From NCBI GenBank assembly GCA_964500675.1, contig CAZCNY010000007.1:152456-216455 (forward strand): a stretch of 64,000 bases of DNA, given 5' to 3'. Shown here in pieces: positions 8,914 to 9,441 of the stretch; within the stretch, counting starts at the first letter, position 1; every line of letters starts with the position of its first letter. The translations under genes were made by a program, and so were the position numbers. The notes beneath the pieces were generated by a model that was given only the letters and a program-made list of their open reading frames with translations, did not search any database and was not told where the DNA came from. The stretch is from an uncultured Verrucomicrobiaceae bacterium. Its GTDB lineage: Bacteria; Pseudomonadota; Gammaproteobacteria; Pseudomonadales; CAMLJR01.

Positions 8914-9235
8914 GAATTCTCTGAAAAACCATCTGATTTTGCGATAATTAGCACCGAATTGCAGGGGTTGCAGACGATGACACAAATGACCTTTGCCGAA
9001 GCTGAATACGCCAACACAAAACACGCGCGAGATTTTTCTGGAGCGCATGGGAGCTTTAATTCCGTAGCAATGGCTGGAGAAAAAGATCGCGCGGTATTAC
9101 AGCAAGAGCGGGTCGCAGGGCGGACGCCCACCGTATCCGTTGCCGACGATGTTGCGCGCGCACTGCTTACAATTATTTTATAACCTGAGCGATCCGGCTT
9201 TGGAAGATGCACTGTACGAAGTGGAATCGATGCGC
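8914..9235 (+). mobile_element. Decayed IS5-family element: left end plus truncated transposase N-terminus
   Basis: Joined frames read [84 protein letters not shown] (ATG at 8977, two frameshifts, TAG where Trp is expected). CTAA (a YTAR-type target) precedes a putative left end gaattctctgaaaaacc. Confidence 0.88.
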
Positions 9236-9441
9236 CCTCAGGCACGGCATTGAGTGTGGACGAGGTCGTTGCGAAAACGTTGGGCAAAAATCTGCGTGAC
9301 GTAGCGGTCTATGGTCGCGAAGGCATAACTGGTGCGCGCAAACGCGAGACCATCGGTTTTTCTACCGTGCGTGCGGCGAATTGGCTTGGCGCGCAACAGC
9401 CCGCCTTGTACGACATGCAGGATGTGCTGGGGCTCAACTGA
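9227..9441 (+). pseudogene. dapB: dapB 3' remnant with an internal deletion
   Basis: Reads [49 protein letters not shown]|[21 protein letters not shown], matching the DapB C-terminus but missing the GDIVGEHT...SRMTFA segment between the two VRA motifs; the N-terminal two-thirds is absent. Confidence 0.88.

Follow-up and report, generated by a model that had tools for sequence, protein, structure and literature searches.

A decayed IS5-type stump fused to a broken dapB copy: a probable dead rearrangement scar at the ancestral dapB position

In E. coli K-12, the genes icd and icdC flank the prophage e14 (PMC13626634; Hill et al. 1989, PMC210168). The locus described here resembles this pair in that a housekeeping gene is present whole at one site while a C-terminal pseudogene fragment lies elsewhere, and in that the differences between the two copies are largely synonymous. 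The 5′ boundary of the present fragment, however, is a joint inside an insertion sequence and not an att boundary. Deletions between short direct repeats have been described in bacterial genes and pseudogenes, where they are attributed to slipped mispairing or alternative end joining (PMC6054270), and microhomology joining linked to insertion sequences has been described as well (PMC9943667). As in these cases, the present locus has kept one copy of a 7-nt repeat and one of a 6-12-nt repeat; nothing about it is unusual in this respect, and the scar is of an already known, ordinary kind. On the side of the insertion sequence, the closest annotated protein is the IS5 family transposase of plasmid pMAQU02 of Marinobacter nauticus VT8, whose N-terminus (DUF772) is 71% identical to the present copy over 87 residues. 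As in the IS5 group, the present copy has a left inverted repeat of the GGAnnCTCTGAAnAA type and its likely target tetranucleotide is YTAR-like, but in comparison with IS5-family elements only the first ~320 of ~1,100 bp are left, without a right end and with three breaks in the frame.

The window, i.e., the whole stretch of 64,000 nucleotides that was analysed, contains a 1.4-kb gap between a minus-strand ORF (8248-8514) and an MCP gene (9922-11100). This gap has no long ORF and carries two gene pieces on the plus strand. The scar itself, at 8914-9441, consists of the first ~320 bases of a decayed IS5-type element followed by the last third of a broken dapB copy, which confirms the anatomy proposed in an earlier note on this DNA. 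Its features and immediate surroundings are as follows:

8868-8914, plus strand: second, diverged (72%) copy of a motif found upstream of the MCP gene, ending exactly at the IS left end (repeat search)
8910-8913: likely target tetranucleotide CTAA, beside the IS left end (preceding bases of the relatives in the same register)
8914-9236, plus strand: IS5-family 5′ stump of ~320 bp (alignment with six related IS copies, DUF772, tblastn)
9225-9236: first joint, AATCGATGCGCC, shared by the IS reading (codons E-S-M-R) and the dapB reading (codons K-I-D-A-P)
9225-9441, plus strand: dapB 3′ remnant with codons 160-206, codons 244-268 and a TGA stop (DapB_C, TIGR00036, DNA identity)
9365-9371: second joint, CCGTGCG, the one kept copy of a 7-nt direct repeat (exhaustive cut placement)
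9442-9921, plus strand: native intergenic region between dapB and the MCP gene, 40% GC (dapB followed by orthologous MCP/che genes in the related genomes G011 and G008)

The best explanation of the whole stretch, which we consider probable, is that it is non-functional debris, a dead rearrangement scar at the ancestral position of dapB.

The IS stump begins with the left inverted repeat GAATTCTCTGAAAAACC at 8914-8930, as aligned to the left ends of six related copies. These copies, found on a Marinobacter plasmid and in other families within the order, are preceded by CTAG, TTAG or TTAA; with the right end missing here, the window shows one member of a presumed repeat pair and one possible copy of the target. 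The transposase ATG at 8977 is followed by the N-terminal DUF772 region, and the frame at 9028-9235 matches Pfam DUF772 with 26.3 and 38.5 bits (cut-off 23.1). The translated stump is 70.8% identical to the annotated transposase of pMAQU02 (tblastn, E 3e-34). Three lesions set the stump apart from all six relatives: 8 bp are deleted after 9024, which shifts the frame, TGG has become the stop TAG at 9065-9067, and 6 bp are inserted at 9110-9115. DNA homology to every related copy ends at 9234-9236, after the E-S-M-R codons, where the relatives go on with Q/R/H-F-A-G-L. The earlier reading of an IS5 transposase up to 9235 is borne out by these results. The transposase is cut off after codon ~87 of ~314, no catalytic part follows the stump, and the DDE catalytic domain (DDE_Tnp_1) is absent from the window, which holds an IS5 remnant and not an element.

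No intact IS5 parent was found in the assembly (15 contigs, 3.6 Mb, 95% complete) by DNA, DUF772, DDE_Tnp_1 or tblastn searches, and the closest relatives, which come from other families, reach no more than 66-77% identity. The sole other IS5 trace in the genome is a 3′ stump on the minus strand of contig C5 (~10,090-10,334), made of the last ~60 codons with in-frame stops and a right inverted repeat ending in CAGTTATTCAGAGGCTCC. It shares 77% amino acid identity and ~72% DNA identity with the relatives, a distance about equal to that of the window stump. The C5 stump is joined to a truncated integrase of the P4 type, of which the central domain, Phage_int_M, is left and the catalytic domain is missing. 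The resulting scar (~10,090-11,300, minus strand; locus L139, 1390-2600) adjoins tRNA-Ser(GCT) and csrA, in what resembles the degraded edge of an island. The stumps in the window and on C5 may each be half of a single element, or may represent two dead copies; the outer flanks, CTAA in the window and CTAG on C5, are compatible with either reading.

The second gene piece translates from 9229 to 9441 as DAPSGTAL...DVLGLN*, in a frame different from that of the IS. It matches Pfam DapB_C as a partial domain with 33.2 bits (cut-off 27) and aligns to the DapB of the same genome with E 7e-39 and a single 37-residue gap (BLASTP), scores that exclude chance and uphold the DapB assignment of the earlier note. 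Against TIGR00036 it reaches 57.3 bits, below the cut-off of 122, and covers profile positions 166-222 only. At the DNA level, 200 of 217 nt (92%) are identical to the dapB of this genome, compared with 70-78% for the dapB of species of the same genus, hence the remnant derives from the dapB of this lineage or from a very close allele. It lacks the N-terminal NAD(P)-binding domain, codons 1-159 and 207-243 and any start context, and is a pseudogene fragment. The earlier note had predicted a further dapB copy as one way to account for the broken gene. A whole-genome search located one full-length gene on contig C14 (11780-12586, 268 residues), directly after dnaJ, which scores 333.6 bits against TIGR00036 over positions 2-270 (cut-off 122). 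Because of this intact gene, the broken copy implies no DAP/lysine auxotrophy.

Both joints lie at short repeats. The earlier note had placed shared bases at 9227-9235; the overlap is real and slightly longer, AATCGATGCGCC at 9225-9236. The parent sequences at this joint are reconstructed from relatives: those of the IS read GA(A/G)TC(C/G/T)ATGCGCC, and the dapB of most relatives (G011, G010, L046 and L061) reads AAAATCGATGCGCC. The present dapB of the genome reads AAAATCGACGCACC, with 6 nt exact and 10/12 overall. The overlap is thus 6 nt against the present dapB, and would reach 12 nt with a lost copy that carried the synonymous states seen in most relatives. For a random blunt joint, with P(overlap = k) = (k+1)(1/4)^k(3/4)^2, a hand calculation gives p ~1e-3 for an overlap of at least 6 nt, about once in 750, and p ~4e-4 for at least 7 nt. 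An exact 27-mer across this joint had no match in the genome and metagenome contig records searched. At the second joint, exhaustive cut placement (ambiguity 9365-9372) gives an internal deletion of exactly 111 bp, or 37 codons, in frame. In the intact dapB, a CCGTGCG stands at each end of the 111 bp that the remnant has lost (TACCGTGCGCGC ... CGCCGTGCGTGC), and the remnant has one copy, in agreement with the earlier claim of an internal loss at a repeated motif. Both joints are consistent with slipped mispairing or end joining at short repeats, a mechanism read from the product only. The earlier proposal of two successive microhomology-mediated deletions therefore stands as regards the repeat signature, which is present at both joints, and either deletion may have come first.

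The differences between the two dapB copies are not evenly spread. Compared with the matching part of the C14 gene (12259-12586), the remnant differs at 17 positions: the initial 16 nt hold 4 of them, the final 9 nt hold 5 and the 192 nt between hold 8, an edge clustering with a permutation p<1/300. The first five differences are all synonymous third-position changes. The remnant ends in CTC AAC TGA and the intact gene in TTG AAA TAG, and both endings (Leu-Asn-stop and Leu-Lys-stop) occur in relatives. Gene conversion tends to spare the edges of repeats. The pattern suggests two once-functional alleles with a homogenised middle, which may have arisen through gene conversion or through recombination with foreign DNA; such clustering would not be expected if a recent duplicate had simply decayed neutrally, and points to two alleles or to conversion of the middle. 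Five amino acid differences, including conserved MGE and FATVRA positions, are all derived in the remnant, as expected for a decaying pseudogene. The synonymous differences split evenly in polarity when compared with G011, G010 and G008, and polarity does not tell which 3′ end is the native one. From the 5′ to the 3′ part of the intact dapB, identity rises from 71% to 82% against G008 and from 79% to 81% against G011, a weak hint that the 3′ part of the intact gene could be recombinant.

Gene order in relatives locates the remnant. In G011 and G008, dnaJ-dapB lies directly upstream of orthologous MCP-STAS-CheY-CheA genes. The remnant is attached to the same MCP/che block, hence it marks the ancestral dapB locus with its native downstream DNA. 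In G010 (contig C8), dapB lies directly upstream of a gene matching window position ~19,000, with no che operon between them. In the window, carA and carB follow at 24077-28458, and in relatives too dnaJ-dapB precedes this block and carA-carB. The che block itself, which separates dapB from the partner-switch/carA genes (window 9922-~19,000; G011:C1:3.438-3.442 Mb), being present in G011 and G008 and absent at this place in G010, is variable within the genus.

The left flank of the scar, with an IclR regulator and a sulfotransferase, maps 1.76 Mb away in G011. The minus-strand ORF on this side (8248-8514) encodes 88 residues, the N-terminus of which resembles a signal or TM segment while the C-terminus is charged and coiled; it matches no Pfam family, and neither the loci of relatives examined nor the rest of the genome contain a homologue. 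On C14, the intact dapB is followed after 62 bp by an Acyl_transf_3 gene (12649-13701, locus L134) with 43% GC, compared with 55% for the genome. This gene, on the far side of the breakpoint, is absent from the corresponding G011 locus and was probably acquired, and the C14 DNA past it maps to a third region of G011. Since the flanks map to separate regions of G011, the scar marks a breakpoint, and this genome and G011 differ by more than one rearrangement. This synteny places the working dapB at a rearranged site. The flanks of the scar have no repeat elsewhere in the genome. The two dapB copies are on different contigs of the draft assembly.

A sequence motif recurs on both sides of the scar. 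It reads TACTTGTTnGAT(N7)TTGTACTA, is 35-47 nt long and has only two copies in the genome, 8868-8914 and 9729-9775, which are 72% identical. The 9729-9775 copy, upstream of the MCP gene, is also found in the dapB-MCP intergenic region of G011 (local alignment 40, shuffle maximum 33), as part of a 65-nt stretch upstream of the MCP gene that is recognisably conserved there. The 8868-8914 copy is borderline, with a score of 30 compared with a shuffle maximum of 28. The motif may have a regulatory role, or may be what is left of intergenic DNA that was duplicated or of foreign origin. A tandem duplication comprising dapB, the intergenic region and the motif was considered as a source and rejected: the shared part is limited to these 35-47 nt at 72% and is borderline, and such a duplication would leave a full IS after the right-hand motif, where there is none.

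A history that would account for these features starts from the ancestral order dnaK-dnaJ-dapB-(che/signalling block)-carA-carB. An essential gene can be broken only where a spare copy covers for it, hence the 3′ part of dapB must have been present in two copies by the time the old one was lost. It would have been doubled in this lineage either through a segmental duplication or through recombination with another allele close to the resident one. One full-length dapB would have stayed with dnaJ, and is now on C14 before the low-GC acyltransferase gene, while the redundant copy at the old site would have lain beside an IS5-family element. A deletion from about nucleotide 322 of the IS to codon 160 of dapB, at the shared AATCGATGCGCC, would then have removed the catalytic region of the IS together with the first 60% of dapB. 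The second deletion, of the 111 bp between the CCGTGCG repeats, would have followed, after which point mutations eroded the remnant. The order of these events, the origin of the duplicate and the recombination mechanism, presumed to be RecA-independent slippage or end joining at short repeats, are deduced from the present arrangement. Relative to the earlier note, this account adds the ancestral locus, the position of the working copy at a rearranged site and the second event, duplication or second-allele recombination, that the doubled 3′ part needs.

An alternative origin for the doubled 3′ part is an att-type duplication like that of icd and icdC, which we regard as unlikely but the most serious competitor. 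Foreign DNA carrying its own dapB 3′ end would have been inserted into dapB by site-specific or Campbell-type recombination, so that a full gene was rebuilt at one end and the native 3′ end was displaced to the other, where the IS5 joint later trimmed it. The coexistence of a full gene and a 3′ fragment fits such an insertion, for which icd/icdC is a precedent (PMC13626634). The close similarity of the two copies stops ~9 nt before the stop codon, yet both ends are legitimate, with different Leu-Lys/Asn-stop endings, and the edge differences are synonymous, as between two working alleles. Low-GC (43%) acyltransferase DNA follows the full gene, and AT-rich DNA and the IS lie to the left of the fragment. 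However, there is no integrase near either dapB copy, the only integrase remnant being the one at tRNA-Ser on another contig, and, unlike for icd and icdC, no contiguous element was found between the copies. The DNA beside both copies is mostly core and syntenic with G011, an argument that is not final because the contigs are not joined. Furthermore, no comparable dapB fragment occurs in 400 other genomes of the order, in which the few double DapB_C matches are full-length paralogues or weak. This lack of recurrence in relatives is another difference from icd/icdC, and dapB as a recurrent insertion site is unsupported among these genomes. A specific form of this reading, in which an icd/e14-like insertion has the intact dapB at one end and the displaced 3′ fragment at the other, and supplied the last codons of the gene from incoming DNA, is slightly less likely again. 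If true, dapB would have served as an integration or recombination site in Spongiibacteraceae, and the low-divergence middle would reflect continuing gene conversion between an essential gene and a pseudogene fragment.

Two further explanations are very improbable. That the assembler made the IS/dapB joint or the 111-bp gap is conceivable for a 15-contig draft, but the dapB piece differs at 17/217 positions from the only other dapB in the assembly, the IS stump is single-copy and offers no other copy for mis-joining, and both joints lie deep inside a 244-kb contig with native synteny on the right flank. A retained small product, such as that of a 63-codon frame at 9250-9441, or a role of the scar as promoter of the che operon, could be suggested by the dapB frame, which is open for 70 codons across an in-frame 111-bp deletion, and by one promoter-like match at 8921-8948, but at 8% divergence a frame can be expected to stay open, the NAD(P)-binding domain and part of the catalytic domain are missing from it, the C-terminal domain being short of 37 residues, all its amino acid changes, conserved MGE and FATVRA positions included, are derived, and the joint occurs in no other genome or metagenome record searched and so has no conservation. 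Supporting this assessment, no Rfam match was found in the scar, and promoter and terminator scans gave nothing beyond shuffle expectation that bears on it.

As a probable dead rearrangement scar, the stretch offers a clean, textbook illustration of how a bacterial pseudogene loses pieces between short repeats, of a kind that gene callers skip. Together with the stump on C5, it is the trace of an IS5-type element that entered this lineage and later became extinct in it. It also pins the ancestral dapB locus and one breakpoint that split the conserved dnaJ-dapB-carAB neighbourhood, and this synteny context, which is modestly useful, is the main addition to what had been read from the sequence before.
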